Shown piece after piece: positions 7,982-36,187 of a stretch of 64,000 bases of DNA. The DNA lies in contig JBKJQZ010000069.1 in assembly GCA_046594835.1 (NCBI GenBank), positions 1,212 through 65,211 of the forward strand, written 5' to 3'. This DNA is from Acidimicrobiales bacterium. Its GTDB lineage: Bacteria > Actinomycetota > Acidimicrobiia > Acidimicrobiales > JACCXE01. Positions within the stretch are counted from its first letter, which is position 1. Each line of letters opens with the position of its first letter. The notes below the pieces were generated by a model. That model searched no databases, was not told the origin of the DNA, and saw nothing but the letters and a program-made list of their open reading frames with translations. The position numbers and the translations under genes were made by a program.

Positions 7982-8200
7982 ATTTTCCCGCACCGCGCCA
8001 GAATTCGTACCGACGGTATGTGTATTTGGTCGCCTAAACGGCGCATCTGGACCGGTATGGCCGATTCGGCTGTCGCAGCCGCACGTGGCTCACTCACGCG
8101 AGCGTTTAGCTAATTTTTGCAAGATTTTGTCGTGCGCGGCGTCAGACTTTGCCCTCTGAAGCGTTAACACTTGACCGCCAAACCAGGAGTACATCTACAC

Positions 8201-10186
8201 ATGCGAACTCGTCGATGGGCTACAGCGGGGCTAGCTGCCCTTACTGCAGTACCCGCGCTCTTCGTAGCAACCGCTAATCCCGCGAAGGCGGCTACCGGTC
8301 CTTACGGTGGCAACGCCGTTGCTGACTTGGTGCACGTCAACGCCCTGAACACGATCCCGGCGCTACCGGGCCTGGCCGACGTGCACGTGGCTCGGTCTTC
8401 GGCCGAGGTGAACTCGGTTGGCCTCGTGGGCAACACAGCCAAGCGGTCCGCGGCACGGGCCACCAATCTCGACGCCCCCCTCGTGGGTGGCGCAATCGAC
8501 CTGAGTGGGCTCGTGGTTGAGGCCGTACAGACCGCACCGCCGAACAACGCCACGCCGACCACGGCGAGCCTCACGGGCCCGGTGGACGTTTCACCCGTCG
8601 CCAGCTTTGAGGCCGCCACGGCCACGGCCCACGCCCGGTGGGGTGCGAGCGACACCACCTGCATTCCCGCAGGTACCCCGATTTCCACGGCCAAGTCCGC
8701 GGTTCTTGACGCCGGTGTCCTCGGCCCGCTCCCGCTGCCTACCGGTAACGCGCTGGTCTCGGTCAACAACGCCAATGGTGGCGCGGCCTACTCGCAGTCC
8801 AGCGTTGGCCTCGTCAACGTTGCGGGCCAGACCAACAAGGGCGTGAAGTCCGAGGTCCTCGACCAGGTCGATGGCATCGTGCTCTTTAAGGGTTCGCCAA
8901 GTGAGCTGACCCTCAACATCGTCGCCCCGCCGACCGTGCAGGCCACGGCCACCGGTACGGCGGCGACCTCGACGGTCACCTACAACCAGCCCGTCGTGCA
9001 GATCATCCAGGGTGGAACCGTCACCGACGTGCTGAATGCCACCGACGCCAACGTCGACATCCAGCTTCCGCCCGGGCCCACCCCGTTGATGATCGCTCGC
9101 CTCCAGCTCGGCACCTTGCTCAATGTCGTCAAGACGGACACGCAGGCCAGCGGCGACGCCACGCTCCTTAGCCTCACCCTGCTCGACATCACCGGCACCG
9201 TGACCCTCGCGAAGGCCGACATCGCTCCGATGAGCGTCAAGGCCACAGTTCCTGCGGGCGGCGTTACTTGCGGTGCTGGCCCCCTGTCGAACCTTCAGGT
9301 CGACGCCTCAACCCCGACCGTTCTCCCGAACGGCCAGTTTGAGTACGCCGTGACCATTCCGAACATCGGTGCGTGCACCGTTGACAAGGTCAAGGTCATC
9401 CTCACGGTCACTGGCCCCGCCGGAAGCTCGATCACCGATACCAGCCCCACCGCAAGCAGTGTGAACGGGTTGGTAGCGACCTGGAATGACATCGGCTCGA
9501 TTGCGCCCGGTGCGCTGAAGGTCGTGAAGGCCACCGTGAAGGTGCCCTCGGACGCGCCGCCCGGCGCCACCTATACCGGGATAGCGACCGCGTCCGGTAC
9601 ATGCGACGGATCCGGAACCGAAGCCACCGCGACGTCGGGTCCGATCCCGACCGTGGGTGCGCCCAGCGACGCCACCTGCGACATCTCAGCCAGCTCGCTG
9701 TCGTCATCGCACAAGGAAGTTCGCATCGGCGACTTCTTCAACGAGTACGTCCGAGTCAGCAACCTCGGCAAGGGCACGTGTAACTCGATCTCGATCACGC
9801 TGAATTACCCGCCGGACTCCTCGTTCGTCACCTGCACCGATGACTGCACGCACTCGGACGCGACCCGCAAGGTCACTTGGACCGTCACGAACTTGGGCTC
9901 GGGTATCAGCAAGGACCTCGTCGCGACCTTCAAGGTGGACACCACTGCGAAGAACGGCGAGAACCTCGGCACGACTGTGACCATCAAGGCCGGTGGCCAG
10001 ACGGTGACCGACAAGACGACCCTTCCGGTAGTCACATCCTCGAACGTGCTCAACAACGGTGCCCAACGAGCGCGAGGCCTGCTGCCCCGCACCGGTGCTG
10101 ATGCACCGCTCGGGATTGCCCTTAGCCTTATGGGTGCCTTCGTGGCGCTGCGTGGCCTGCGGCGCCGCTTCGGCTTCGGCGGCTAA
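8201..10186 (+). CDS. Cell-wall-anchored surface protein with LPXTG-type sorting signal and DUF11-like repeats
   Basis: AGGAG lies 11 nt upstream of the ATG at 8201. Signal peptide MRTRRWATAGLAALTAVPALFVATANPAKA. The C-terminus is LPRTG followed by a hydrophobic stretch and RRRFGFGG. Repeated DUF11-like segments are present (e.g. TWTVTNLGSGISKDLVATFKV). Confidence 0.85.
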   Translation: MRTRRWATAGLAALTAVPALFVATANPAKAATGPYGGNAVADLVHVNALNTIPALPGLADVHVARSSAEVNSVGLVGNTAKRSAARATNLDAPLVGGAIDLSGLVVEAVQTAPPNNATPTTASLTGPVDVSPVASFEAATATAHARWGASDTTCIPAGTPISTAKSAVLDAGVLGPLPLPTGNALVSVNNANGGAAYSQSSVGLVNVAGQTNKGVKSEVLDQVDGIVLFKGSPSELTLNIVAPPTVQATATGTAATSTVTYNQPVVQIIQGGTVTDVLNATDANVDIQLPPGPTPLMIARLQLGTLLNVVKTDTQASGDATLLSLTLLDITGTVTLAKADIAPMSVKATVPAGGVTCGAGPLSNLQVDASTPTVLPNGQFEYAVTIPNIGACTVDKVKVILTVTGPAGSSITDTSPTASSVNGLVATWNDIGSIAPGALKVVKATVKVPSDAPPGATYTGIATASGTCDGSGTEATATSGPIPTVGAPSDATCDISASSLSSSHKEVRIGDFFNEYVRVSNLGKGTCNSISITLNYPPDSSFVTCTDDCTHSDATRKVTWTVTNLGSGISKDLVATFKVDTTAKNGENLGTTVTIKAGGQTVTDKTTLPVVTSSNVLNNGAQRARGLLPRTGADAPLGIALSLMGAFVALRGLRRRFGFGG

Positions 10187-10203
10187 CCGAAGTTTCAGAT
10201 TGT

Positions 10204-10235
10204 GAAAGAGCCTCGGCTTCGGCCGGGGCTCTTTC
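10204..10235 (+). terminator. Strong GC-rich hairpin with UUCG tetraloop downstream of the surface-protein gene
   Basis: GAAAGAGCCTCGGC-TTCG-GCCGGGGCTCTTTC forms a 14-bp stem with one G-U pair. It starts 18 nt after the stop at 10186. It has no U-tract, like the tail-less hairpin terminators described as common in actinobacteria. Confidence 0.6.
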
Positions 10236-10263
10236 GCGTCTGGGGTTCGGTAGGGTGACGCGT

Positions 10264-10401
10264 GTGAAGGGCTTCCGCCGCGCGTTCGTCGCCTTGTTCA
10301 TCGCGGCGCTGGCCACCGCCCTCGTGCGCCTGCGCGGTAGCGGTGGCACCCCGCCGAGTGGCGGCGGCTGGCATGAAGTTCCCGCCGACGAACTGCGCTA
10401 A
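10264..10401 (+). CDS. Possible small membrane protein (45 aa), not in the ORF track
   Basis: GTG start. Product VKGFRRAFVALFIAALATALVRLRGSGGTPPSGGGWHEVPADELR has one TM helix and high GC3. No recognisable family and no clear RBS. Confidence 0.3.
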   Translation: MKGFRRAFVALFIAALATALVRLRGSGGTPPSGGGWHEVPADELR

Positions 10402-10409
10402 CTCGCTTC

Positions 10410-11417
10410 GTGGCTAAGTCAGCGGCGATCAACGTCGCCGTCATCGGGACGGGCGCGGTCGGGCTTCGGGCGGCGCGGCAGCTCCACGAAACCGATGGGG
10501 TGGCACGCGTGGTTGTCGTGGCGCGTAAAGCCGTGCGCGCTGCGTCGATCGCAGGCCAGCTCGGCGAAGGCGCGTCGGTGGGGGAGTGGCCTCAGGTCGT
10601 ACGCGATGTCGACGCCGTGGTGCTCGCCGTGCCCGACACGCTCCACGCCGACATGGCGCGGGTTTGTCTCGGTGACGGCGCCAGCGTGGTGTCCACTGCG
10701 GGTTCCATCGAAGCGGTCGACGGTGTGAGCGGGCTTGCGGCGCGCGCATCCGCGCTCGGCCTTTCTGCGGTGGCTGGCGTCGCGATGTCGCCGGGCTTGT
10801 CGTGCCTGCTGGCGTGGCGAGCCGCCCGCGATCTCGATGTTGTCGACGAAATCCACGTCGCGAAGTCCGGCACCGGCGGCCCTGCGTGCGCGCGGGCAAC
10901 GCACGCTGCGTTGCGCGGTCCGGCGGCGGTGTGGCGCGACGGACGCTGGCAGTCCGAGCCCGCAGGTTCGGGACGCGAGCTGTGCTGGTTCCCCGAACCC
11001 ATCGGTGGCCTCGACTGTTACGCGGCGAGTTCGGCCGAGGCGGCCCTCATGGTGGCCGCGTTCCCCACCGCTCGGCGCGTCACCGCTCGCGTCGCGGCAA
11101 CCCGTCGAGATAAGGCAACGACATGGCTTCCGATGCTGCGCCCGCCCCACCCCGAAGGCCTCCTCGGTGCGGTGCGCGTGGAAGTGCGGGGCTGGAAGCG
11201 CGGCGTTGCCACCACCAACGTGATGGGCGCAGTTGATCGTCCCGCGGTTGCCGCGGGAACGTTGGCCGCGCTGGCGGCGGTCGGCGCGGTGCGGGGTGAA
11301 CTCACGCCGGGTGCCGGCGGGATTGCGGCACTGGCCGCAGACCCGGGCCGGCTCCTTGCCGACCTAGCCGAACGCGGCGTAAAAGTGGCGTCGTACGCAA
11401 CCGTCGCTGACACCTGA
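10410..11417 (+). CDS. NAD(P)-binding Rossmann-fold oxidoreductase (saccharopine-dehydrogenase-like)
   Basis: The N-terminal dinucleotide fold is INVAVIGTGAVGLRAARQL. The specific function is not identifiable. Confidence 0.6.
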   Translation: MAKSAAINVAVIGTGAVGLRAARQLHETDGVARVVVVARKAVRAASIAGQLGEGASVGEWPQVVRDVDAVVLAVPDTLHADMARVCLGDGASVVSTAGSIEAVDGVSGLAARASALGLSAVAGVAMSPGLSCLLAWRAARDLDVVDEIHVAKSGTGGPACARATHAALRGPAAVWRDGRWQSEPAGSGRELCWFPEPIGGLDCYAASSAEAALMVAAFPTARRVTARVAATRRDKATTWLPMLRPPHPEGLLGAVRVEVRGWKRGVATTNVMGAVDRPAVAAGTLAALAAVGAVRGELTPGAGGIAALAADPGRLLADLAERGVKVASYATVADT

Positions 11418-11678
11418 GCTTTCTCACTACCTGGAAACAAGTACCGAGTACTTGGGGCCGCCTCGGAGCCTGTCCGTACGGTCCAAAGCGTGGAACTCGC
11501 CCAACTGCTGCGCCGCCCGTCGCCGCCGGACCGATCGCTGTTGCTGAGTACGACGAACTCCGCAGGCGTTGCCGGAACGCGTCGCGCGGATAGGCGTGCG
11601 CACCACGAACCAGCATCACGTCCGGGCGAGCGTGTGGCTCAGGAGTTCGAGAGCTTCGAGGGGTTCGATCGGCTTTCG

Positions 11679-13160
11679 ATGCGCATGCACGAACGCCTTG
11701 GCTCAAAAGCAATTCTTGTGTACGCGCTCCTGGCCGGCGTGGTCGCGGTGTTCGGCGCGGGCCTCGAGGTCGTGACTGCGTACCAATACGCCGGGCGACG
11801 CATCCAAGGCGTGGGCAGCGTGGCGATCGCCGGCCAGTTCATCAGTCTCGTCTGCGTGACTACCGCCGCGTTTCTGACGGCGCGCCTTCTCGGTCCCGCT
11901 TTCGGGTTCGTAGGCTCAGACGATCGCGAGCGGGACGCGCCGGCGGCGTGGCTGGCCGCGATCCGCGGACTCGACCGAGCCGTCTCGCTGGGCTTTGTGC
12001 TCTTTGGGCTTGCGAATGTTCCCCTCGCGTTCTACGCCCGTTCGGCCCTCGACCTCGGGCCGGCGGCGGTCCCCGTGGCGTTCAGTTTCATGGTGTTATT
12101 CACTGCGCTCGCCGCTTGCCTCGACTACGTCGCGTTCCGTCGCCTGTTGCGGCCTCTCATCCATACGATCGCGGCCCATCTTGCCGAAGACTTCGAACCG
12201 CAGTACCGGACACCGCCGCTACGACTCCGGTTGTTTTCGGTGATGCTCGTGTTGACCACAGTCGCGGGCACAACTGCCGCGTCGGTCGGCACCGGCGACA
12301 TCGTGTCGCGGCTCGCCCTCGGCTTGGGGGTGTCGGGCGGATTCGTATTGGTCTACGGCGTGCTGTTGGCTTTCTTGCTCACCGACAGCGTCTCCAATCC
12401 GATGGACGAACTCGTGCGCGCGACCCGGCGAGTCGCGATCGGCGACTTCTCGACGCGGGTTCCAGTGGTGGATGCCGACGACACTGGTTCTTTGGCGACC
12501 GCGTTCAACCACATGATGCGCGGGCTCACCGAACGCCAGACACTGCGAGAAGCAATGGGTAGCTACGTGGATCCGTACGTGGCCGAACGTGTCCTTGCGG
12601 AAGGCCAGATGCTCGGCGGCCACGCGGTTGACGCCACCGTGCTGTTTGTTGACATTCGAGGCTTCACCGCGTGGTGCGACGGGCGCACCGCAGAGGAGAC
12701 CGTTGCCCACCTCAACGACTTCTTTGGACTCGTCGTACCGATACTCGCCGAGCGGGGTGGCCACGCAAACAAATTCATGGGCGACGGGCTGCTTGCGGCG
12801 TTCGGTGTGCCCACCGCATGTGAGGACCACGCCGACCGCGCGTTGCAGGCTTCAATCCGGGTTATCGAGGCCATCCGCGCTCGGTACGGCGAGGAGCTAC
12901 GCGTTGGAATTGGAATCAATACGGGCCGGCTTGTCGTCGGCAGTATCGGCGGCGGCGGCCGACTTGAGTTCGGCTTGATTGGCGACGTGGTGAATGTGGC
13001 CTCGCGCGTTGAACAATGCACAAAGGACACCGGCGACGCGATCCTGTTTACCGACGCAACCCGCGCCGCACTCGCGCAGGAGTATGCACTTGTTGCCCGC
13101 GGCGCAACGGCGGTGCGCGGCAAAACTGCCCCGGTCGCTCTGTACGCGCTCGAAGTTTGA
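11679..13160 (+). CDS. Class III adenylate/guanylate cyclase with 6 TM helices and a HAMP domain
   Basis: Six hydrophobic segments are followed by HAMP (MDELVRATRRVAIGDFSTRV...LATAFNHMMRGL). The cyclase homology domain follows (VLFVDIRGFTAW, KFMGDGLLAAFG, GINTGRLVVGSIG, IGDVVNVASR). The start is uncertain: the GTG at 11490 is the longest option and I prefer the ATG at 11679. Confidence 0.85.
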   Translation: MRMHERLGSKAILVYALLAGVVAVFGAGLEVVTAYQYAGRRIQGVGSVAIAGQFISLVCVTTAAFLTARLLGPAFGFVGSDDRERDAPAAWLAAIRGLDRAVSLGFVLFGLANVPLAFYARSALDLGPAAVPVAFSFMVLFTALAACLDYVAFRRLLRPLIHTIAAHLAEDFEPQYRTPPLRLRLFSVMLVLTTVAGTTAASVGTGDIVSRLALGLGVSGGFVLVYGVLLAFLLTDSVSNPMDELVRATRRVAIGDFSTRVPVVDADDTGSLATAFNHMMRGLTERQTLREAMGSYVDPYVAERVLAEGQMLGGHAVDATVLFVDIRGFTAWCDGRTAEETVAHLNDFFGLVVPILAERGGHANKFMGDGLLAAFGVPTACEDHADRALQASIRVIEAIRARYGEELRVGIGINTGRLVVGSIGGGGRLEFGLIGDVVNVASRVEQCTKDTGDAILFTDATRAALAQEYALVARGATAVRGKTAPVALYALEV

Positions 13161-17356: not shown

Positions 17357-17515
17357 CTAGACGCAGATCTCGATGGGATCTGGGAAGAGCGGCGGGATCG
17401 GCGGAATGGTGATGCAGACCGCCTGCGCAGGCGCGGGATTCACCATCGGAAGGACGAAACCGCCCACGATCATGGCGACGACTATGAGCGCCGCACGAGT
17501 CTTGCTACGTAGCAT
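17357..17515 (-). CDS. Small secreted peptide precursor (52 aa): signal peptide plus 20-aa Pro-rich two-Cys peptide; not in the ORF track
   Basis: I translated this ORF by hand: MLRSKTRAALIVVAMIVGGFVLPMVNPAPAQA|VCITIPPIPPLFPDPIEICV*. A perfect AGGAGG sits with a 9-nt spacer before the ATG (ACAGGAGGTTGGTCAATG). The n/h/c signal-peptide architecture ends in an AQA cleavage motif. Confidence 0.6.
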   Translation of the reverse strand: MLRSKTRAALIVVAMIVGGFVLPMVNPAPAQAVCITIPPIPPLFPDPIEICV

Positions 17516-17542
17516 TGACCAACCTCCTGTTGGGGTTGGTCA
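17516..17542. promoter_or_regulatory. Perfect 9-9-9 palindrome abutting the small-peptide start codon
   Basis: TGACCAACC (17516-17524) and GGTTGGTCA (17534-17542) are exact reverse complements separated by 9 nt. On the minus-strand mRNA the hairpin would include part of the AGGAGG SD and end at the ATG. Confidence 0.5.
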
Positions 17543-17571
17543 GGGCACGCTCGGGGGGTGCGACCTCTTAC

Positions 17572-18549
17572 ATGCTTGAACCGTTAGAGCCACTACAGCC
17601 GAGCGCGTTCGAGCTGTGGTGGGCGACTACAGACCCGGTAGTTCGAGCGTTCCTACGTCAACGTGGATGCCAGCTGCACGATGTCGACGACCTCGTGCAG
17701 CTGACCTCCGAGAAGGCATGGCGGACGCCTAAGAGCTTTGGCAACGCAGGACATTTCGTCGCTTGGTGTTGCACCGTCGCAGAAAGCCGTCGAATCGACG
17801 AGTGGCGCAAAACCCGTCGGGAGACACTGAGCGACCTTCACGAGCGCCCGGAGCACTTTGATATTGAGGACCTGGCTTTGAACCTCGTCACGAGGGACCT
17901 ACTGCTAAGGGTGATCGCGACGCTTCCGCCGGTGCAGCGGGACGCGGTCCTCGGAGTGCTCGACGTCTCCTCGCCCGGTGCGGCCAACCGAGTCGGCGTG
18001 GCGCGTCACCGGGCGCGGAACAAGCTCCGCGATGCGTGGGAGAGGCTCCTAGGAGGACTGACCGCGGGTCCGCTGGGCCGAGTCTTGGCGAGATTCACGC
18101 GCGCTGGTCAACAGGTGTCGCCAGAGGCAGCCAGTGCCGTGATCGCCACCGGTGTAGCAGCAATCTTGGGTGTTCTCGGTGTCTCGGCGCTAGCTCTCCA
18201 GGATTATCACCAGGCGTCGCGAGCTGAGGCGTCGAAAGCGGTCGGTCTGAAAGGCTCGGGCTTCGCTACGAACGCGACGGCGGGCAGGAATGCGACGACG
18301 TCGGTGGCTCCTAAAGCGGAAGCGCCGGTCTCCAAGCCGAACTATTCACCGGTGAGACGCACGAGTTTGCCGTTCTTGCCAGCGTCGGATGGGTCGCCTC
18401 AGAGGGTCGTCATCGAGCCCTCCACTCCCGAGAAGTCCGGCCAGCACGTGTGCTTCTCCACCATGGTCACGCCGTACGGATGTGTGACGACGCCCTTTCA
18501 GTCAATCGACTACGTGTTCCCGAGCTGGATGCCGCAACCTTTGCCTTAA
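17572..18549 (+). CDS. ECF-type sigma-70 factor fused to a C-terminal TM helix and extracytoplasmic domain
   Basis: The sigma-2-like region is DVDDLVQLTSEKAWR...FVAWCCTVAESRRIDEWRK. The sigma-4-like region is LPPVQRDAVLGV...VARHRARNKLRDAW. A TM helix (AVIATGVAAILGVLGVSALAL) follows, then a tail of about 110 aa with 2 Cys. The ATG at 17572 is preferred over the track start at 17515. Confidence 0.7.
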   Translation: MLEPLEPLQPSAFELWWATTDPVVRAFLRQRGCQLHDVDDLVQLTSEKAWRTPKSFGNAGHFVAWCCTVAESRRIDEWRKTRRETLSDLHERPEHFDIEDLALNLVTRDLLLRVIATLPPVQRDAVLGVLDVSSPGAANRVGVARHRARNKLRDAWERLLGGLTAGPLGRVLARFTRAGQQVSPEAASAVIATGVAAILGVLGVSALALQDYHQASRAEASKAVGLKGSGFATNATAGRNATTSVAPKAEAPVSKPNYSPVRRTSLPFLPASDGSPQRVVIEPSTPEKSGQHVCFSTMVTPYGCVTTPFQSIDYVFPSWMPQPLP

Positions 18550-18837
18550 TTGACGTATCGAATCGCCTGGCCCTCACGTAGGTCGGGTATGTCGAACTTC
18601 CGTCTTCGTTTACGGCCGCAAGCGCGTCTACGCCGACCTCCTCGGCTGGGCGTTGGGCGAGAACGGCGGTGTGGCCTGGATGGCGAAGCAACGCGGCGCG
18701 AACGCCCCACCCGGCGGGCACCTGAGCGATGGGTCGATCGGTCGAATAAAGGAGGTGGCTAGAGGTTCGCTACCATGATTGTCCGCGTTCACGTAAACTG
18801 GCGAGAGGTTTTCTTCCAGTTTTTTTGTGCACGCCCA

Positions 18838-18911
18838 GGGGGCGTAGCTCAGTTGGCTAGAGCACCTGCTTTGCAAGCAGGAAGTCGTCGGTTCGAGTCC
18901 GATCGCCTCCA
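18838..18911 (+). tRNA. tRNA-Ala (anticodon TGC), CCA not encoded
   Basis: The acceptor GGGGGCG/CGCCTCC carries the diagnostic G3:U70 pair. Anticodon loop TTTGCAA, T-loop TTCGAGT. The tRNA is 74 nt including the discriminator A. Confidence 0.95.
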
Positions 18912-19041
18912 CTACTCCTGAGCCTGTCGTTGAAAATCGAGCCTGGTCCCCTCGACGATATGTACGCGCTTGCGGGGGGTTTCTTGTGCGGCCGAACGGT
19001 ACGCCGCTCAAGTCGACGGCTCCTGATCCGATAGGCGAGAA

Positions 19042-22000
19042 ATGCGAGGCGCACTTGAAACACGCGAGCGCGACGGCGCCGGTGCTCACACCGAGGCTCC
19101 CGATCCGTCTGCGAGGGAACACCCGCGGACGATTGGCTGGGTCGGCACAACGGCAATGGCGATGGGCGGAAGCAACCAGAGCCTGTTCCTGATCGGTGCG
19201 CTGATAGCGGCGCAAGGGAGCGCGGCGGTTCCCCTGCTGGTGCTCGGCCTGTTGATGAGCTGGGCTGCCATGCCGGGTTGGACCGAGTTGATCCTGCTTT
19301 ATCCGAACCGCGTCGGGGGCATCGCGGCTGCGTGCGCGGAAGCGTTCAAGCCCTACTCACCTGTTCTCGCGAATCTCACCGGCACCTGTTACTGGTGGGG
19401 GTGGGTACCGACCTGCGGCCTGACTGCGTTGCTGTCGGCGTCGGCGATCCATGACTGGTACCTACCAGGAGTGCCGATCACGCCCATGGCGATTGCGATC
19501 GTCGTCGGCTTCACGCTCGCCAACCTGGCCGGATTGCGCAAGGTGACCAACCTCGCGATCCTCATCGCCACCGGATCCGCCTTCCTCGCCTTCGTCTCGG
19601 CGGTAGCACCGGTGTTCGCAGGCAACGTCGACTGGCACCAGGCGATGTCGTTCCACCTTGCGACGCCGTTCGGCGGCGCGTTCGGCAAGTTCACGAGCGC
19701 AATGGCTGGGCTGTATCTCATCGGGTTCGCCGCTCCCGCGTTCGAGGCCGCGGCGTGCCATGTCGGCGAGACGATCGACCCGAACCGAAACGTTCCGCGT
19801 GCCATGTTCGCCAGCGCCTGGATTGCGACGTTGTACTTCCTTGTGTTGCCGGTCGTGTGGCTTGGCGTGTTCGGGCCCGCGCCAATCACCGCCAATCTCG
19901 CCACCACACTCGGCCCGACGTTCGCACCGTTGTTCGGGGGCGCGGCCAGGGCGGCCGCGGTGTGGTTCATGGTGCTCAACATGTTCCACGGCACGCTCAC
20001 TCCCGTCACGGGTGTCGCGCGCACATTGTCGCAACTCTCCGAGGACGGTCTCCTGCCGCGTGTCTTGGCGAAGCGGCTGCGCAACGACGTGCCCTGGGTC
20101 GCCTCGGCACTGACCGCAGCGTTCGCGATCGCCTTCCTCGTCGCGGGTGATCCGATCTGGATGATTGCGGCCGCAAACTTCACCTATCTGATCGGCATCT
20201 CGCTGCCGAGCGTTGCGGTCTGGCTGCTGCGCAAGAACCAGCCGCACCTGGTCCGTCCGTATCGCGCGCCGCGCTTCACGATCGGTCTCGGTCTGCTTGC
20301 CGCGCTGGGCTGGGGTATCAGCACGATCTTCGGCTTCGAGCAGTTCGGCTTGCCGACGGTGCTCTTCGGCCTCGGCCTCGCGTATTCGGGAGCGGGCGCT
20401 TACGTATTCCGTCAGTGGCGCGACCGCGACGGCCGCCCAAAGCTCGTCAAGCGTTCGTTGCACTTGAAGTTGACCGGCGCGATGTTGGCGGTGATGGCGC
20501 TCGACGGAGCGGGCTACCTCCTCGCGGTAAGCCACGTCACCGCCGCTGACCCTGCTCTGATTAGCGTGCTTCAAGACATTTTTGTCGCGGTCGCCGTGCT
20601 CACAATCACCGTCGGGCTCGTGTTGCCGGGCATGATCGCCCACGGTGCGAGCGAGGTGTCCAACGCTGCGGACCGCCTTGTTAGCGGCACGTTGGCAGAC
20701 CTGACCCGAGCGATGCGTGCGTTATCGGAAGGTGATCTCGAGGGAGCGAGCGCTCGGGTCGACAATCCGCACATCGCGATCCACTCGCGCGACGAGGTCG
20801 GTGCGATGGCGTCGAGCTTCAACGAGATCCTCGACGAGTCGGGCCGCGCCGCGGAGGCGCTCGATAGTGCTCGCTCCGGACTGCAAGCCGTGCTGGCCGA
20901 CCTCAAAGAGACGAAGGTGCAACTCGAGATCGCGCTGGCCGAAGCGACCGAAGCCTCGCGTTTGAAGTCGGCGTTTCTCGCCAACATGAGCCATGAGATC
21001 CGCACGCCGATGAACGGCGTGATGGGCATGATCGGGTTGTTGCTCGACAGCGAGCTCGCCCCGGAACAACGCGACTACGTCGAGACGATGGCCGGATCGG
21101 CCGAGGCGCTCGGCGGGATCGTCAACGACGTGCTCGATTTCTCCAAAATCGAAGCCGGCAAGCTGGACATTGAGCACCGGCAGTTCGCACTGCCCGCAGC
21201 GGTGGACGCCGCGCTCGACGCCCTGGCCACGAGCGCCGGCGACAAGGGCATCGAGCTGATCAGCGTGATTGCGCCGGGCGTACCCGAACTCGTCATCGGC
21301 GACCGTCTGCGGCTACGCCAGGTGGTGTCCAACCTGGTGTCAAACGCGATCAAGTTCACCGACGTCGGCCATGTGTTGGTGCGGGTGTCGCCGACTCCAA
21401 CCGGGGTGTGCTTCGAGGTGATTGACACCGGCATCGGCGTGCCCCGCGAAAATCGCAGCCGGCTGTTCGAGGCATTTGTGCAGGCCGACGACTCCGATTC
21501 ACGGCGCTACGGAGGCAGCGGCCTGGGTCTCGCCATCTGCCGCCAGCTCGTGGAACTGATGGGCGGGACCATTGGCGTTGCGAGCGAAGGCAACGGCGGC
21601 AGCAGGTTCTGGTTCACGCTTCCTTTCGAAGTCCTGGCCGGACCGTCGGTCCGACGTATCGAGCAGCCCGTCCGCGCGCTCGTTGTGACGCGGCAGCCCG
21701 CGTTGGCGGACGCGCTCATCGATCTCATGGGTCAATGGTCAATCAGTGCGAGCAGCGTCGAGGGTTACTTCGCCGAGCGTGAGGTGGCGGACGCTGCGTT
21801 GCGCGGCAAGCCATTCGATGTGGTGGTGATTGACGTTGATCCCGGCGGCGCGCACCAGAAGGCGCTTGCGCGCTCGATAGGCACCGACACCGATCGCGGA
21901 TCGCCGCGGGTCGTCGCGCTTACGCCACCGGGCCGGGGTGTGCGGGATCTGGACAAGGGCGTCGACGGGTGGGTGACAAAACCGGTGCACCAGGCTGCGC

Positions 22001-22485
22001 TGTTCGACTGTTTGACGAGCCTGCTCGGAGTGGCCGCGGACGGTCAGGACGAGGGTCCGCCGGCCCCGTCGCCGGCCCGGTCCGCGGCGCGCGGACGACT
22101 CCTGGTCGTGGAGGACAACCTGGTCAACCAGAAAGTTGCGTTGGCGATGCTCACAAGGCTCGGGTACACCTGCGACGTGGCCCTTGATGGCCGAGAGGCG
22201 TTGGTCGCGCTGGGCGCTGCGCACTACGACGCGGTTTTGATGGACTGTCAGATGCCGAACATGGACGGGTACGAAGCGACCGCCGCGATCAGGCTGGTGG
22301 AAAGCATGAGAGACGTGCCGATCGTCGCGATGACCGCGTCGGCGATGGCATCAGACCGCGAGCGCTGCCTCGCCGTCGGCATGGACGATTACGTGTCGAA
22401 GCCAGTCGACCCCGAGTTGCTTGCCTCCGTCGTGGAACGTTGGGTCGGGTCGCGCCACCCCGTTGGCGCTTCCGGTCTTTCTTGA
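19042..22485 (+). CDS. APC-superfamily permease domain fused to HAMP, HisKA, HATPase_c, a degenerate REC-like domain and a canonical REC domain (hybrid sensor kinase)
   Basis: One uninterrupted 1147-aa ORF. The N-terminal ~480 aa has about 12 TM helices and APC hallmarks ([13 protein letters not shown]..., [31 protein letters not shown]). Two more TM helices and HAMP follow. The H-box is [11 protein letters not shown]. The N/G boxes are [13 protein letters not shown] and GGSGLGLAI. The terminal REC has [20 protein letters not shown] and SKP. Confidence 0.85.
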
Positions 22486-22647
22486 GTCCTCGATTACGAC
22501 GTCGGCCCCGTTCCCGCTGCGGACGATCACGCTCCCGGACTGGATGACGAACATGTCCTGGCCTGGGTCGCCCTTGCGGACGATGAATTCGCCGTCGCGA
22601 AAGTCCCTCTCCGACTCGGAGGCGGCGGCAAATCGATCCGTCAGCAT
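22351..22647 (-). pseudogene. Truncated cyclic-nucleotide-binding domain remnant
   Basis: FRDGEFIVRKGDPGQDMFVIQSGSVIVRS matches the first half of a cNMP-binding beta-roll. The FGE...RSA half is missing. The last 135 nt of the ORF run antisense through the 3' end of the kinase gene. Confidence 0.5.
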
Positions 22648-22656
22648 TCCCGCAAT

Positions 22657-22866
22657 CTACGGGTCGAGCGCGCGCAAGATGAGCGCCCACGAGGCGAGCC
22701 CGTGCTGGCACCACGCGTCGGGCGCGACGAGGCAATTGTCGGGACACCGGCACACGCCGTCGCCCGCCCACTCATCGAGCGTCTCTGGATCCGGCGGCGC
22801 CCATCCACTGTTGTGCTCGAACCATTCGTGCGCGTTGCGGATCGCGGCGGCCGCAGAGGTCGTCAT
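22657..22866 (-). CDS. Small Cys-motif protein (69 aa) of unknown function
   Basis: GGGAGAG lies about 4 nt upstream of the ATG at 22866. Product MTTSAAAAIRNAHEWFEHNSGWAPPDPETLDEWAGDGVCRCPDNCLVAPDAWCQHGLASW... carries a CxCx4C...CxH pattern suggesting metal binding. Confidence 0.55.
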   Translation of the reverse strand: MTTSAAAAIRNAHEWFEHNSGWAPPDPETLDEWAGDGVCRCPDNCLVAPDAWCQHGLASWALILRALDP

Positions 22867-22889
22867 GGGCTCTCCCGCGCGATGCGTAC

Positions 22890-23318
22890 TTATTCCATTC
22901 CGGTGGGGTTGTCGTTGACTTCTTGCAGCACCCACTGGTTCCCGTCGGGATCGGCGATCTCCGCGTAGGTGCCGAACCGGGCGCGCTCGGGGTGCAGGCC
23001 GGGCGCCTTGCCCTCGGTGCCGAAGTGGTACGGATCGCCGACGGGCGCGCCGCGCCCTTTGAGATCGTCGATGGCCGCTGCGATGTCGCGGACGCAGAGG
23101 TGCATGCCGCTGTACATGCCCGCCTTGGCCGGATCGGACACGCCGAGGCCGAACGTGATCGAGCAGTCCGAGCCCGGCGGGGTGAGCTGCACGACGCGGA
23201 ACTGATCGCCCATCGCGTGGTCGACGTCGAGGTTCCAGCCCATCTGCTCCTCGTAGAACTGTTTGGCACGGTCGACGTCGGTCACCGGCAACACGAAGAC
23301 TTCGATGCGGTAGTCCAT
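22890..23318 (-). CDS. VOC / glyoxalase-bleomycin-resistance family protein
   Basis: MDYRIEVFVLPVTDVDRAKQFYEEQMGW...DPDGNQWVLQE is a typical VOC fold pattern. The ATG at 23318 lies 4 nt after the upstream stop. Confidence 0.8.
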   Translation of the reverse strand: MDYRIEVFVLPVTDVDRAKQFYEEQMGWNLDVDHAMGDQFRVVQLTPPGSDCSITFGLGVSDPAKAGMYSGMHLCVRDIAAAIDDLKGRGAPVGDPYHFGTEGKAPGLHPERARFGTYAEIADPDGNQWVLQEVNDNPTGME

Positions 23319-32288: not shown

Positions 32289-32999
32289 CTAACGGTCGTC
32301 GTCGGAGCGGTCGACGAGGCGGTACCCAACCCCCGGCTCGGTGATCAGACGAGGCCGCGTCGCGTCCTCATCAAATTTCTTTCGAAGCTGGCTGGCGTAG
32401 ACGCGTAAGTACTGGGTTTCGGTTCCGTATCCTTTGCCCCACACTTCCTCGAGGATCATGCGGTGCGTAATTACCCGGCCCGGGTGGCGGGCGAGCACGG
32501 CGATGAAGCCAAACTCCTTCGGCGTGAGGTCAACTTCGCCGCCCGACACGGTGACCACGCGTCGAGCGATGTCGATGTGCAGATCGCCTACGTCGTAGAC
32601 CGATTCGTCGATCGTTGCCGCGGAGCTGGTGCGGTGCCGCAGCGCGACGCGCACGCGCGCCAACAACTCCGGTACGGAGAACGGCTTCGTGACGTAATCA
32701 TCCGCTCCCTCATCTAGCGCTGCGACCTTGCGGTCGTCTGCGCCCTCCGCCGTCAACACAATTATCGGCACCTGCGACCACTGCCGGATGCGGCGGCATA
32801 CCTCGATGCCGTCGATGTCGGGGAGGCCGAGGTCGAGGATGACGAGGGCCGGCCCCTCGGCCGCCGCCCGATCGAGAGCTGCGAGCCCACTAGTGGCTTG
32901 CACGACCCGGTAGCTGCGAGCTTCGAGTGCCGCGGTGAGCGCACGCACGATTGCGGGCTCGTCGTCCACGACAAGGATGGTGGTCGACAGGTCAGTCAT
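32289..32999 (-). CDS. kdpE: OmpR-family response regulator, KdpE-like
   Basis: The REC domain has ILVVDDEP, LVILDLGLPDIDG and LTAEG. The wHTH tail TQYLRVYASQLRKKFDEDATRPRLITEPGVGYRL matches the KdpE signature. The ATG at 32999 overlaps the kinase stop by 8 nt. Confidence 0.85.
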   Translation of the reverse strand: MTDLSTTILVVDDEPAIVRALTAALEARSYRVVQATSGLAALDRAAAEGPALVILDLGLPDIDGIEVCRRIRQWSQVPIIVLTAEGADDRKVAALDEGADDYVTKPFSVPELLARVRVALRHRTSSAATIDESVYDVGDLHIDIARRVVTVSGGEVDLTPKEFGFIAVLARHPGRVITHRMILEEVWGKGYGTETQYLRVYASQLRKKFDEDATRPRLITEPGVGYRLVDRSDDDR

Positions 33000-34125
33000 G
33001 ACGCATCGGAAGGCTGAAACTGAATCGGGCTCCGCCGGTTGTAGCTGTCGACACGTCGATGAGGCCACCGTGGGCTTCGATGATCGCCCGACAGATTGCG
33101 AGGCCGACGCCGCTCGACGAACTGCCGTCCCCGCGCTGGAACGGCTCGAAAATCCGATCGGCTTGGTAGGTGGCCACGCCGCTGCCCTCGTCGCTTATGG
33201 ACGCGACCACAAGGTTTGCCTCTACACGCGCGGTTACGCGCACCGTGGTGCGGGGCGGGGAGTGACGCGCCGCGTTTTCGAGCAGATTGGTCACAACCTG
33301 ATCGACCAGGACGTAGTCGGCATCGACGAGGGGCAGATCAGACGGGATCTCCACCTGCACCCGTACCTGACGGAACAGCCGGTCGAGGCGCCGCACTCGC
33401 TCTCGCACGAGCTCCTCGAGGTCAACGGCCTGCGGCTCGGGCACGAGGGCTCCTGCTTCAATCCGGCTGAGACTAAGGAGGTTGGCGACGATTCGATCGA
33501 GGCGCTGTGCTTCGTCGCTCACGAGATCGAGCAGTTCGTCGCGGGTCTCGGCGTCATAGGCCGTCCCGCTGCGCAGATCGGAGGCGACGGCGCGAATCGT
33601 CGACAGAGGTGTGCGCAGGTCGTGTGAGACCGACCGAATCAGGGCGCGACGCTGCTCGTCGACTTGTTCGAACACTGCGAGTCGCGTGGTCTCCTCGACG
33701 CGCGCGTCGCGCTCGGCCACCGCCGCTTCGTAGCGGGTGTGCATCGTCTCCACTTCACGCGCTCGCTGCTCGGCGGAGTGGCGTCGTTCTGCTTCGAGGG
33801 CGACCACCGTGCCGAGCACGGCCCCAACCGCTAGTAGGACCACGAGCGCGACCGCGTCATCGAGCGCGTCCACTTTGAGTGTCCAGTAGGGCTCAATGAA
33901 GGCGAGATTGAACGCGAGCGCTGCGCCGACGGCCGTTACGAGCGCACCCACTCGACCACCGAGTACCCCGGCAACCAGAACAGGGACCACGAGCATGAGC
34001 GCAGGCGTAGCCCGACTCGACGAGTCGCGCAGGGGCACCAGGGACGCGCTCACGGCGATGGTCAGCGCCAGACCCATTGCCGCGCCAATCAACGGCGCCG
34101 GACGGCGACCCACAGCGAGTTCCAC
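32992..34125 (-). CDS. Sensor histidine kinase, KdpD C-terminal type (DUF4118 TM module, HisKA, HATPase_c) lacking the KdpD N-terminal and Usp domains
   Basis: Four TM helices with NLAFIEPYWTL (DUF4118-like). The H-box is SHDLRTPLSTI. The ATPase motifs are NLLENAARHS, DEGSGV and SSSGVGLAICR. At only 377 aa it is less than half, as I recall, the length of a full KdpD. Confidence 0.8.
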   Translation of the reverse strand: MELAVGRRPAPLIGAAMGLALTIAVSASLVPLRDSSSRATPALMLVVPVLVAGVLGGRVGALVTAVGAALAFNLAFIEPYWTLKVDALDDAVALVVLLAVGAVLGTVVALEAERRHSAEQRAREVETMHTRYEAAVAERDARVEETTRLAVFEQVDEQRRALIRSVSHDLRTPLSTIRAVASDLRSGTAYDAETRDELLDLVSDEAQRLDRIVANLLSLSRIEAGALVPEPQAVDLEELVRERVRRLDRLFRQVRVQVEIPSDLPLVDADYVLVDQVVTNLLENAARHSPPRTTVRVTARVEANLVVASISDEGSGVATYQADRIFEPFQRGDGSSSSGVGLAICRAIIEAHGGLIDVSTATTGGARFSFSLPMRHD

Positions 34126-34204: not shown

Positions 34205-36187
34205 GTGAGCAATTTTGCGCCTCCGAAGCCGATCCCAGCGATGCCGGCGCTCGACCTCGCCGAGGACCGGCGCTACCGGATCAAACGACGTCTGCTCGGC
34301 GCGCCGTTGCACACCGAAGAACTCGCCCACGAGCGCCTTGGCAAGCCAACGGCGCTGGCCGTATTTGCGTCAGACAACCTGTCGTCCTCGGCGTACGCGA
34401 CCGAGGAGATCCTCCGGGTCCTCGTACCCGCGGTCGGCGTCGCCGCCTTCAGCCTTGTACTGCCGATCACGGTTGGTTTGCTCGTCGTCCTGGGCTTCCT
34501 GATCCTCTCGTACCGCCAAACCATCAAGGCCTACCCGACCGCGGGTGGCGCCTACATCGTCACGAAGGACAACTTCGGACTGCTGCCGGCGCAGGTTGCG
34601 GGCGTGTCGTTGCTTACCGACTACATCCTGACCGTGTCGGTGTCGGTCGCTGCGGGCACCGCAGCGCTTACTTCCGTTTTCGTGGGGGTGCGGCCCTATG
34701 CAGTGGAGGTGTCACTGCTGTTCATCGTCGTCATTGCGTACGGCAACCTGCGGGGCGTGAAGGAGTCAGGGAAGCTCTTCGCAGTCCCTACGTATTTCTT
34801 CATAGGCAACATGATCCTGCTGCTGGCCGTCGGGCTTTCAAAGCAGTTCTTCGGGCATCTTCCGGTCGAGTCGCTCAACCACCCGGGCCTCGTGCCGATC
34901 GGCCGCGGTGGCGCTGACGGCGCGATGTTCGCCGGCGCGAGTCTGTACATCGTGCTGCACGCGTTTGCCTCGGGGGGCGCCGCGGTGACTGGGGTAGAGG
35001 CAATCTCGAACGGCGTGCCTGCATTCAAGGTGCCCGAGTGGAAGAACGCCCGGGAGACCCTCGTGGTCATGGGTGGCCTGCTCGGCGTGATGTTCTTCGG
35101 CCTGTCGGTCCTCGCCGCGCACATGCACGTTGCCCCGTACGCCGAAGGTACCCCCACGGTGATCTCCCAGATCGGGAAGCTGGTCTACGGGCCGGGAACC
35201 CTCGGCACGATTCTTTACTTCGGGTTGCAAGCGGGAACCATGCTCATCCTCGTTCTCGCCGCCAACACGAGCTTCGCTGACTTTCCTCGCCTCGCCAGCT
35301 TCCACGCCGGTGACAACTTCATGCCGCGGCAGCTAACAAAACGCGGCCATCGACTCGTGTTCTCCAACGGCATCATCAGCCTCGCGGTTGCGTCCGCGTT
35401 GCTCGTTGTCCTCACCGAGGCGAAGGTCGATCGGCTCATCCCGCTCTACGCGATCGGCGTATTCACCAGCTTCACGCTGAGCCAGGCCGGCATGGCCAAA
35501 CACCACATCACGCACAAAGAGGATGGCTGGCGGACGGGCTTGTTTATCAACGGCACGGGCGCGTTTCTCTCGCTCCTCGTCGACGTCGTCGTCGCCGTCA
35601 CAAAGTTCACCCACGGGGCGTGGGTGATCCTCGTGATGGTCCCCGTGATGGTTGCGATGCTGATGCGTCTCAACAAGCAGTACGAGGCCGAGGCCGCCGA
35701 GCTCGCTGCCGATGCGAAAGCCGCCGCCGAGGCGCCGGTCCTTCGCCGCCACGTCGTGCTCGTGCTCGTCGATCGGCTCGATCGTGCCGCGGCTCGTGCG
35801 ATCCAGTACGCGCGGACGCTCCACCCTGACGAGTTGCGGGCGGTGCATATCGCGGTCGACCTGTATCGAGCGGACGTGCTCGCCGATGACTGGCGCCGTC
35901 TCGGGCTCACCCGACTGCCGTTGGAACTCGTCGACTGCCCAGATCGGCGCATCGATCATTCCGTGCTCGAGATTGTGGCCGAGTGCCTGGCCGGAGGCCA
36001 GACCGAAGTCAGCGTTCTGGTGCCTCGTCTTGCCCACCGACGCATGTGGCACCGGTTGCTTCATGACCGCACCGGGGACCAGATCGCCGATTCGGTCGGG
36101 CGTCTCGCGCACGCCAACGTGACGTTCGTGCCCTACCACCTCGGGTCCCGCATATTGAAGGAGAGCATTGATGCCGATTCCCATTAA
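34205..36187 (+). CDS. kimA: KimA (YdaO)-type K+/H+ symporter of the APC superfamily with a C-terminal cytoplasmic domain
   Basis: Blocks that I recall as conserved in B. subtilis KimA and mycobacterial Rv2690c: SDNLSSSAYATEEIL, SYRQTIKAYPTAGGAYIV, LLTDYILTVSVSVAAG, TGVEAISNGVPAFK, LVLAANTSFADFPRLAS and LIPLYAIGVFTSFTLSQAGM. The start is uncertain (GTG at 34205 or ATG at 34241). Confidence 0.8.
   Translation: MSNFAPPKPIPAMPALDLAEDRRYRIKRRLLGAPLHTEELAHERLGKPTALAVFASDNLSSSAYATEEILRVLVPAVGVAAFSLVLPITVGLLVVLGFLILSYRQTIKAYPTAGGAYIVTKDNFGLLPAQVAGVSLLTDYILTVSVSVAAGTAALTSVFVGVRPYAVEVSLLFIVVIAYGNLRGVKESGKLFAVPTYFFIGNMILLLAVGLSKQFFGHLPVESLNHPGLVPIGRGGADGAMFAGASLYIVLHAFASGGAAVTGVEAISNGVPAFKVPEWKNARETLVVMGGLLGVMFFGLSVLAAHMHVAPYAEGTPTVISQIGKLVYGPGTLGTILYFGLQAGTMLILVLAANTSFADFPRLASFHAGDNFMPRQLTKRGHRLVFSNGIISLAVASALLVVLTEAKVDRLIPLYAIGVFTSFTLSQAGMAKHHITHKEDGWRTGLFINGTGAFLSLLVDVVVAVTKFTHGAWVILVMVPVMVAMLMRLNKQYEAEAAELAADAKAAAEAPVLRRHVVLVLVDRLDRAAARAIQYARTLHPDELRAVHIAVDLYRADVLADDWRRLGLTRLPLELVDCPDRRIDHSVLEIVAECLAGGQTEVSVLVPRLAHRRMWHRLLHDRTGDQIADSVGRLAHANVTFVPYHLGSRILKESIDADSH

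Follow-up and report, generated by a model that had tools for sequence, protein, structure and literature searches.

Can the fold of a solute transporter act as the sensory half of a bacterial signalling protein, and by what device would it be coupled to the output? The question is raised by a sensor kinase gene in a 64,000-nucleotide stretch of DNA from an Acidimicrobiales bacterium (GenBank assembly GCA_046594835.1, contig JBKJQZ010000069.1, positions 1,212 to 65,211 of the forward strand), which we call the window and whose positions are counted from its first letter. An earlier reading made from the letters alone (the sequence-only reading) had described an APC-type permease fused to a HAMP domain and a hybrid histidine kinase, and had proposed it as an undescribed signalling device. 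The analysis reported here leaves practically no doubt that an APC-type permease, two further transmembrane (TM) helices, a HAMP domain and a hybrid kinase are joined in one polypeptide, and that this architecture defines a family. The protein is probably a membrane hybrid histidine kinase of the 'transceptor' type, with a divergent APC-family permease domain of 12 TM helices as its input.

Reading frame and domain architecture

The gene is a single open frame of 1147 codons plus a stop, 19042..22485 on the + strand, starting with ATG; the open reading frame (ORF) list and the translation confirm that it is uninterrupted, as the sequence-only reading had held, and a database protein (P0001) matches the 1147-residue product at 100%. 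A weak Shine-Dalgarno-like GGCGAG lies upstream of the ATG, which stands 130 nt beyond the end of a tRNA-Ala (TGC) gene at 18838-18912 (+), and a scan of 18500-23000 found no promoter-like or terminator-like sites. The features of the gene are as follows.

19042..22485 (+): complete gene of the permease-fold hybrid sensor histidine kinase (ORF, Pfam architecture, match to P0001)
19042..19131 (+): predicted cytoplasmic N-terminal tail, residues 1-30, weakly conserved (27% mean identity to relatives)
19132..20424 (+): 12-TM permease-like input domain of APC/LeuT fold, residues 31-461 (Pfam, Foldseek, invariant columns)
20458..20631 (+): TM13-TM14 hairpin, residues 473-530 (model helices, 70% mean identity, invariant residues)
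20638..20841 (+): HAMP domain, residues ~533-600 (Pfam 547-598, 28.9 bits)
20842..20961 (+): signalling-helix coiled coil from HAMP to DHp, residues ~601-640 (model helices 585-620 and 628-668)
20962..21159 (+): DHp/HisKA domain, residues 641-706, with phospho-acceptor H651 at codon 20992-20994 (Pfam, invariant H-box)
21178..21639 (+): catalytic ATP-binding (CA) domain, residues ~713-866 (Pfam HATPase_c, invariant residues at box positions)
21670..22029 (+): first receiver-fold domain (Rec1), degenerate, residues 877-996 (model fold, alignment with ShkA Rec1)
22093..22449 (+): canonical receiver (Rec2), residues 1018-1136, with E1024-D1025, D1068, T1098 and K1120 (Pfam, invariant residues)

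The Pfam scan returned the expected set of families, all in one frame. AA_permease_2 covers residues 31-423 (E 4e-31; 108.8 bits against a cut-off of 27; profile positions 1-396 of 427) and AA_permease residues 51-372 (E 7e-14; 51.7 bits, cut-off 24.6). These are followed by HAMP at 547-598 (28.9 bits, cut-off 25), HisKA at 642-706 (E 1.4e-21, 76.8 bits), HATPase_c at 753-863 (E 3.9e-33, 114.6 bits) and a single Response_reg at 1021-1131 (E 7e-28). In the same scan of the protein, at E up to 0.1, AA_permease families were the only transporter hits and no SSS-family domain appeared. There was likewise no match to a STAC domain in the protein, the connector consisting of two TM helices and HAMP. 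Among NCBIfam models, a BarA/TorS-like core extends from ~583 to 1138. Orthology with BarA, TorS, ArcB, RcsC or LuxQ was rejected, BarA scoring 423.9 against a cut-off of 890, TorS 374.6 against 676.5, and the others also falling below their cut-offs.

An APC-type fold at the input end

An AlphaFold2 model was built from an alignment of 77 full-length homologues and reached a mean predicted local distance difference test (pLDDT) score of 81.4, mostly 85-95 in the membrane core; residues 1-20 fall below 50, and the family consensus begins with 'HPRT.GW'. The model places 12 core helices at 33-461, TM13 at 473-498 and TM14 at 504-~530. TM14 is continuous with the first HAMP helix (helix 504-562), and is followed by the second HAMP helix and signalling helix (585-620), a DHp hairpin (628-704) and the ATP-binding domain, with the canonical receiver at 1019-1136 farther on. 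Lysine and arginine residues are distributed 28 to 0 between the predicted cytoplasmic and periplasmic loops, which places the N-terminus inside and HAMP in the cytoplasm. The periplasmic turn between TM13 and TM14 is only ~5 residues long, so the permease core would be the only plausible extracytoplasmic input. The two additional TM helices and the HAMP domain of the sequence-only reading are thus both recovered.

When the N-terminal domain was compared with the PDB by Foldseek, it matched solved APC transporters, namely BasC (9h76, 6f2g), y+LAT1, AdiC (5j4n, 3ob6) and LAT1. The target-normalised TM-scores lay between 0.73 and 0.81 for alignments of ~440-470 columns, sequence identity being 16-19%. 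Sequence comparison reached solved SLC7 transporters and GkApcT at 2.5e-8 with the single sequence and 7e-13 with the family profile. By two independent routes, sequence and modelled structure, the N-terminal domain is therefore assigned to the APC fold; another fold, which would have undone the sequence-only reading, finds no support from either the profile or the fold search.

Within the APC family the domain is an outlier: in a search of 1.84 billion cluster representatives, only 1051 reached E 1e-3 and 206 reached 1e-30. The TM6 motif 'GFAAPAFE' aligns with 'FSYSGWD' of the LAT transporters in the profile alignment, the Phe and the acidic residue being kept. 'GGSNQS' of TM1 stands at the expected place, yet without sequence alignment to any solved structure.

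Conservation of the sensor half

Judged by sequence identity, no part of the protein is better conserved than the sensor half, an unusual pattern. Against the window protein, identity averages 68% in the permease, 70% in TM13-14, 56% in HAMP, 64% in DHp, 48% in CA and 52% in Rec2, and the permease domain is 65-83% identical across phyla. Of the 515 residues of the module, about 120 are the same in all of 64 sequences drawn from many phyla. They include GGSNQS (TM1), GFAAPAFE...HVGE (TM6), NMFHGT (TM8), AAANFTY (TM10) and, in TM3, the aromatic cluster YWWGW; the outward-facing loops are also invariant across the family. Charged residues E235, K476, D488 and D512 are invariant in or at the ends of predicted membrane helices. 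In the TM13-TM14 stretch the invariant set is K476, D488, D512, P529 and G530, of which D488 and D512 are predicted to be intramembrane.

A large and widespread family

A search of a 5.8-billion-protein collection with the window protein, of which the 120 best matches were examined, found the permease combined with HisKA, HATPase_c and a receiver in all 120, some of them with PAS domains or a C-terminal Hpt in addition. A pattern scan of one genome per species in GTDB, using the motifs YWWGW[VI]PT and GFAAPAFE with tblastn confirmation, gave at least 599 motif candidates and at least 470 confirmed loci in ~ten phyla. The best 80 of these at least 470 loci were fetched for closer study. They come from Actinomycetota, Verrucomicrobiota, Chloroflexota, Myxococcota, Alpha-, Beta- and Gammaproteobacteria, Gloeobacterales, Planctomycetota, Acidobacteriota, Armatimonadota and Dormibacterota, and nearly all are soil, peat or freshwater metagenome-assembled genomes. 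Acidimicrobiales are closest among them, with 83% identity in the module. One of the 80 lies in the complete genome of a named strain, Verrucomicrobia bacterium IMCC26134 (CP011265.1), which, if cultivable, opens the family to experiment.

In all 80 fetched loci the permease runs on into a long multidomain ORF, contig ends excepted. No clear stand-alone permease was seen among the best 150 of the 1051 cluster representatives, which were fused members or fragments. Even among ten distant full-length members (31-43% identity) a scan recovered the permease domain in nine, HAMP in eight and a recognisable output in seven, six of these outputs being kinases and one PAS-GGDEF-EAL.

The architecture is visible in databases under automated labels, for example 'signal transduction histidine kinase/.../amino acid transporter' at JGI and, for some members, 'amino acid permease' at NCBI. 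Full-text literature searches yielded no fusion of an APC/AA_permease domain with HAMP and either a kinase or GGDEF-EAL, although absence there is no proof. The family is thus large, widespread and apparently unstudied. The claim of an undescribed signalling device stands insofar as we found no study of it, and the same searches turned up no characterised APC-fold equivalent. As a description of a one-off it does not stand, the protein being a member of a large family that databases already display.

As a separate observation, a 70-kb Ktedonobacterales contig (JBBQXY010000009.1) carries the same member at both ends (L031 and L033), in opposite orientation and with identical ORF coordinates, which reflects either an inverted terminal duplication or faulty assembly.

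A portable input module with interchangeable outputs

The permease, the two TM helices and HAMP form a portable input module that is joined to a kinase, to GGDEF-EAL or to HD_5. In a Pfam census of 56 complete relatives, HAMP was present in 55 and HATPase_c in 35 (27 with HisKA and two with HisKA_2/HWE), together with Response_reg in 24 and Hpt in three. GGDEF occurred in 21 of the 56, in 20 of them together with EAL, and one relative had HD_5, of the HD-GYP type. Inserted PAS domains were found in about 12 and GAF domains in eight. Such a pairing of one constant membrane module with exchangeable outputs is what one classically expects of a sensory input domain.

The exchange is seen in the closest genomic relative of the module, another Acidimicrobiales locus (L006) with 83% identity, in which GAF-GGDEF-EAL follows HAMP. 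Similarity between the window protein and this relative ends ~15 residues past the second HAMP helix, and the signalling helix is the joint at which relatives attach different output domains. Actinomycetota and Dormibacterota versions almost all carry GGDEF-EAL; those of Verrucomicrobiota, Proteobacteria, Myxococcota, cyanobacteria and planctomycetes are kinases. Output type therefore sorts by taxon, and the window protein, with a hybrid-kinase output on a module of actinobacterial type, is a minority combination.

Within the kinase subfamily, the segment that corresponds to residues 471-640 (TM13-14, HAMP and the signalling helix) has lengths of 156, 170, 177, 184, 191, 198, 205 and 212, and thus varies almost only by multiples of seven residues. 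Such heptad steps indicate that the coiled-coil register from HAMP to the phospho-acceptor His is preserved.

The sequence-only reading had proposed that the device is read out as phosphorelay. This would hold for the kinase output found here; the module is also coupled to cyclic di-GMP (c-di-GMP) enzymes elsewhere in the family, and that solute flux or occupancy is what is reported is something we, too, can only infer.

Kinase and receiver half

The complete HisKA/HATPase_c core was found as the sequence-only reading had described it. H-box residues S650, H651, E652, R654, T655 and P656 are invariant in the 77 homologues, and so are N764, N768, D795, G797, G799, F812 and G824-L830, which by our own reading occupy the typical positions of the N, G1, F and G2 boxes. 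Rec2 residues D1025, D1068, T1098 and K1120 are likewise invariant among homologues. Going by these intact catalytic and phospho-acceptor residues, the kinase should be catalytically competent. Its Foldseek and phmmer matches are ShkA, GacS, RetS and HK853.

Residues 877-995 receive no Pfam call and adopt a (beta-alpha)5 receiver fold in the model. In this first receiver T883-R884 replace the acidic pair, and D931, T961 and K980 are kept; the contrast with the canonical second receiver (E1024-D1025) had been noticed correctly before. What the comparison adds is that, in the 38 homologues that have a first receiver, D or E occupies the first acidic position in 33 and the second in 32, and D931, T/S961 and K980 are present as well. 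As the first receiver is canonical in most of the relatives that have one, its degeneracy in the window protein is lineage-specific. About half of the kinase relatives lack the first receiver altogether.

Comparison with known systems

Transporter folds as kinase inputs are not without precedent, CbrA (SLC5) and Ks-Amt5 (Amt) being known examples (PMC13022988, PMC7096432, PMC8534201). The sequence-only reading had named only fusions of the SSS/SLC5 type; CbrA and CrbS are indeed of this type, and the Amt type has to be added. In CbrA and CrbS (MxtR) of Pseudomonas and Vibrio, a secondary transporter of LeuT fold, thought to be the input, is joined to a histidine kinase in one polypeptide (PMC13022988, PMC7096432, PMC5715377), and CrbS is also a hybrid kinase. 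Their SLC5 domain is followed by a STAC coupler (PMC13022988, PMC7918813, PMC7096432, PMC5715377). They differ from the present family in having an SSS/SLC5 domain of 13 TM helices rather than an AA_permease/APC domain of 12, and in being coupled through a soluble four-helix STAC domain and PAS rather than through a TM13-TM14 hairpin and HAMP. In addition, the input halves have no visible sequence relationship, and the module described here is also found on GGDEF-EAL and HD_5 outputs. In Ks-Amt5 of Candidatus Kuenenia stuttgartiensis, a transporter-fold domain likewise precedes a histidine kinase and ligand binding is relayed intramolecularly (PMC8534201). The fold there is Amt/Mep/Rh, trimeric and channel-like, instead of LeuT/APC, HAMP is absent, and the protein binds ammonium with no efficient translocation.

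Signalling by an APC permease is known in trans. In Escherichia coli the permease LysP signals lysine, its substrate, to CadC through membrane-embedded contacts (PMC5936718). Two proteins are involved there, and the output is a ToxR-like DNA-binding protein rather than a kinase. The permease domain described here is itself only distantly related to characterised APC members, at about 1e-8 to 1e-13 against solved structures.

Among eukaryotes, the yeast permeases Ssy1 and Gap1 (APC superfamily, YAT family) act as external amino-acid receptors. They differ from the present family in signalling through associated proteins (SPS or PKA pathways), with no fused two-component or c-di-GMP domain. Gap1 has been cited as a transceptor (PMC11109136), and CbrA has been called a rare "transceptor" (PMC13022988). 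A 2024 survey, using a strict definition that excludes CbrA, states that the transceptors reported are few and exclusively eukaryotic (PMC11109136).

For the output half, the closest known system is ShkA of Caulobacter crescentus, a DHp-CA-pseudoreceiver-receiver kinase whose activation follows the displacement of a DDR linker motif from the pseudoreceiver by c-di-GMP (PMC6969517). Residues 646-1135 align with ShkA (6qrj) in the same domain order (E 5.6e-77, 33% identity), and in both the first receiver keeps the Asp but is devoid of the metal-binding acidic pair. An N-terminal input is missing from ShkA, in contrast to the large membrane input here. The DDR motif is absent from the window protein and, in the HMMER alignment, one or two of the six c-di-GMP contact residues are kept (R965 identical, W977 conservative), so that control by c-di-GMP in the manner of ShkA finds no support.

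Transporter-fold kinase inputs being already known, what is new here is the transporter family, the coupling device, the interchangeable outputs, the wide distribution and the conservation. Transporter-fold inputs in bacterial signalling have been treated as rare oddities, and the present family is common (at least 470 loci), extremely conserved and wired to both two-component and c-di-GMP outputs. It offers a second, independent system in which to ask how the rocking of a LeuT fold becomes a kinase signal, and it points to a signal that evidently matters to many bacteria of soil and fresh water, among them Verrucomicrobiota, Actinomycetota, Chloroflexota and Myxococcota. The compact module could, perhaps, also be grafted onto reporter kinases for biosensing.

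Proposed mechanism

We postulate that a small external solute binds in, or passes through, the permease core and shifts it between the outward- and inward-facing states typical of the fold. The movement would be passed by TM12 to the tightly conserved TM13/TM14 hairpin, the putative transmission element, and from there through the cytoplasmic HAMP domain to the coiled-coil signalling helix, whose heptad register would allow it to set the autophosphorylation of H651. The phosphoryl group would then move from H651 to D1068 in the second receiver of the same protein, and on to an Hpt protein and a response regulator encoded elsewhere; alternatively, the second receiver may be a phosphate sink only. 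The direction of signalling, the coupling through TM13/14 and the solute as stimulus are steps that we infer. As to the ligand, it is tempting to guess, weakly, at a small nitrogenous solute or organic cation, because of the distant similarity to a trimethylamine N-oxide (TMAO) permease and the aromatic cluster YWWGW in TM3.

More broadly, the permease-2TM-HAMP module may represent an undescribed, ancient and widespread class of membrane receptor, in which an APC transporter, transporting or not, has been turned into a solute sensor that drives phosphorelay or c-di-GMP turnover through a TM hairpin and detects, in soil and freshwater bacteria of ~ten phyla, one particular small molecule that is ecologically common. 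For this wider proposal we consider the chances evenly balanced.

Several points weigh against the protein being a solute-sensing transceptor kinase. The family is known from sequence and from one predicted structure. Sequence profiles align just TM4-TM12 to solved APC structures, TM1-TM3 remaining unaligned. The best-scoring named permease family, the TMAO permease NF053774, was rejected as an identity at 129 bits against a cut-off of 690, which makes it a distant relative from which no substrate can be inferred. No conserved neighbour gene emerged from the Pfam census of 203 flanking ORFs of the fetched genome loci, and hence no clue to a ligand. The first receiver could be a second, cytoplasmic input. 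Finally, the phosphorelay is incomplete in the window, which holds no Hpt and in which the only other response regulator has its own kinase.

Alternative explanations

A first alternative is that the permease domain senses proton-motive force, pH, Na+ or the state of the membrane through the equilibrium of its LeuT fold, with no specific organic solute involved. The invariant E235, K476, D488 and D512, in or at the ends of membrane helices, would suit such a role, as would a family sequence so uniform that it fits one universal stimulus, and no conserved catabolic or transport genes lie nearby that point to a nutrient. We nevertheless think a purely physical or ionic stimulus unlikely, on indirect grounds: the conserved motifs fall in the helices that form the canonical substrate path in APC transporters, where that of TM6 aligns with the substrate-gate motif of the LAT proteins, and the invariant outward-facing loops suggest an external ligand path.

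Alternatively, the permease-like domain might be a mere anchor or dimerisation scaffold, the real signal being cytoplasmic and acting on HAMP, the signalling helix or Rec1, for example c-di-GMP as in ShkA. The whole DHp-CA-Rec1-Rec2 core aligns end to end with ShkA, 6qrj being the top Foldseek match, Rec1 is degenerate in both, and ShkA R324 and Y338 correspond to R965 and the aromatic W977. The likeness breaks down at I340, R344, S347 and Q351 of ShkA, which are replaced by T979, H983, A986 and T992, and at the missing DDR linker motif; moreover, the three of these positions tabulated across the family are all unconserved (Q predominates at 965, V at 979, and Q or A at 984), and about half of the kinase relatives do without Rec1. 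A mere anchor would also not be expected to keep 65-83% identity across phyla together with invariant residues in TM1, TM3, TM6, TM8 and TM10 and in the outward loops, and we regard this explanation as improbable.

The flow of information might also be reversed, in which case the protein would be mainly a transporter whose kinase and receivers regulate transport in response to cytoplasmic cues. The permease core does look structurally complete, and CbrA both transports and signals (PMC7096432). Yet HAMP placed directly after the last TM helix, in heptad register with DHp, is the standard wiring from input to output, outputs as chemically unrelated as a kinase, GGDEF-EAL and HD_5 on one module are hard to explain as regulators of a transporter, and the best 150 of the 1051 representatives included no clear stand-alone permease of the clade. 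Such a reversal therefore seems very unlikely.

That the long ORF is an assembly or frameshift artefact joining separate permease and kinase genes has virtually no chance of being correct: the source is probably a metagenome-assembled contig and we found no support for an artefact, the identical architecture recurs in the 120 best homologues and the 80 fetched loci, spread over many phyla and assembled independently, the junction formed by TM13-14 and HAMP ranks with the most conserved segments, and a fusion conserved across hundreds of genomes and metagenomes excludes a frameshift or chimera, and with it the split of permease from kinase that the sequence-only reading had reckoned with, without recourse to read data.

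The Hpt domain and the output pathway

The window protein ends 12 residues past the second receiver. In P0002 and P0003, the kinase relatives nearest to it (71-72% identical), a C-terminal Hpt is fused to the protein. The Pfam scan shows no Hpt in the window protein, and a hidden Markov model (HMM) derived from the Hpt tails of 24 homologues detected none in any of the six frames of the 64-kb window. Because P0002 and P0003 have the domain, its absence here looks like a lineage-specific loss. The lack of an adjacent Hpt or cognate regulator, reported by the sequence-only reading, is borne out.

The last 135 nt of the kinase gene are overlapped by a 98-residue ORF at 22351-22647 (-). Pfam cNMP_binding is matched by the first ~52 residues of this ORF alone, and over no more than profile positions 2-43 of 89; the remainder is antisense to the 3' end of the kinase gene. 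The cNMP_binding homology stops at ~22491, six bases from the kinase stop codon (22483-22485), which suggests a deletion junction. It may be conjectured that the Hpt-coding end was lost in a deletion that also took the distal half of a convergent cNMP-binding gene. Directly upstream of this truncated ORF lies a Cys-rich ORF of 69 residues, 22660-22866 (-), which contains CRCPDNCLVAPDAWCQH, belongs to no Pfam family and is without homologues among the fetched loci.

A six-frame search with a receiver HMM found an OmpR-type regulator at 32289-33068 (-), 10 kb away, which was rejected as the cognate partner; it adjoins its own DUF4118-type kinase.

The closest kinase relative, P0002 (locus L001), is flanked by REC-PAS-GGDEF-REC at 3693-5354 (-) and HATPase_c-REC-Hpt at 9346-10692 (-). 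Both are candidate partners and both are missing beside the window gene. Such a neighbourhood is suggestive of multi-kinase or c-di-GMP networks more than of a dedicated operon. In four contexts that were looked up and in the census of 203 ORFs, receiver-domain, kinase or GGDEF genes appeared occasionally, in a minority of loci. All-against-all clustering of the ORFs of the 80 fetched loci gave recurrent clusters that were mostly antisense ORFs within the sensor gene.

Other genes in the window

The genes flanking the sensor kinase encode a protein with sigma-70 region 2, tRNA-Ala, a glyoxalase-fold protein, an ArsR-AHSA1 regulator and Ada/AlkA, none of them informative. Farther downstream, the DUF4118-HisKA-HATPase kinase (32992-34125, -) and its OmpR-type regulator are divergent from the gene of a 660-residue AA_permease_2 protein at 34205-36187 (+). 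The latter bears a long C-terminal extension. A permease thus stands next to a two-component system for a second time in the window. BLASTP found no kinship between this permease and that of the sensor kinase.

Three genes upstream were also noticed. The 344-residue protein at 17515-18549 (+), in which sigma-70 region 2 is the sole assigned domain and N-terminal, has a long extension that is hydrophobic and Pro/Ser-rich by eye, and it may represent an ECF-type sigma factor to which a C-terminal domain has been fused. HAMP and an adenylate/guanylate cyclase domain occur together in a 556-residue protein at 11490-13160 (+), which is hydrophobic by eye in its N-terminal half and adds one more HAMP-coupled signalling protein to the window. 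The 671-residue protein at 8171-10186 (+) ends in LPRTG, a hydrophobic stretch and a basic tail, which by eye looks like a sortase-type cell-wall anchor and would fit a Gram-positive (actinobacterial) source.

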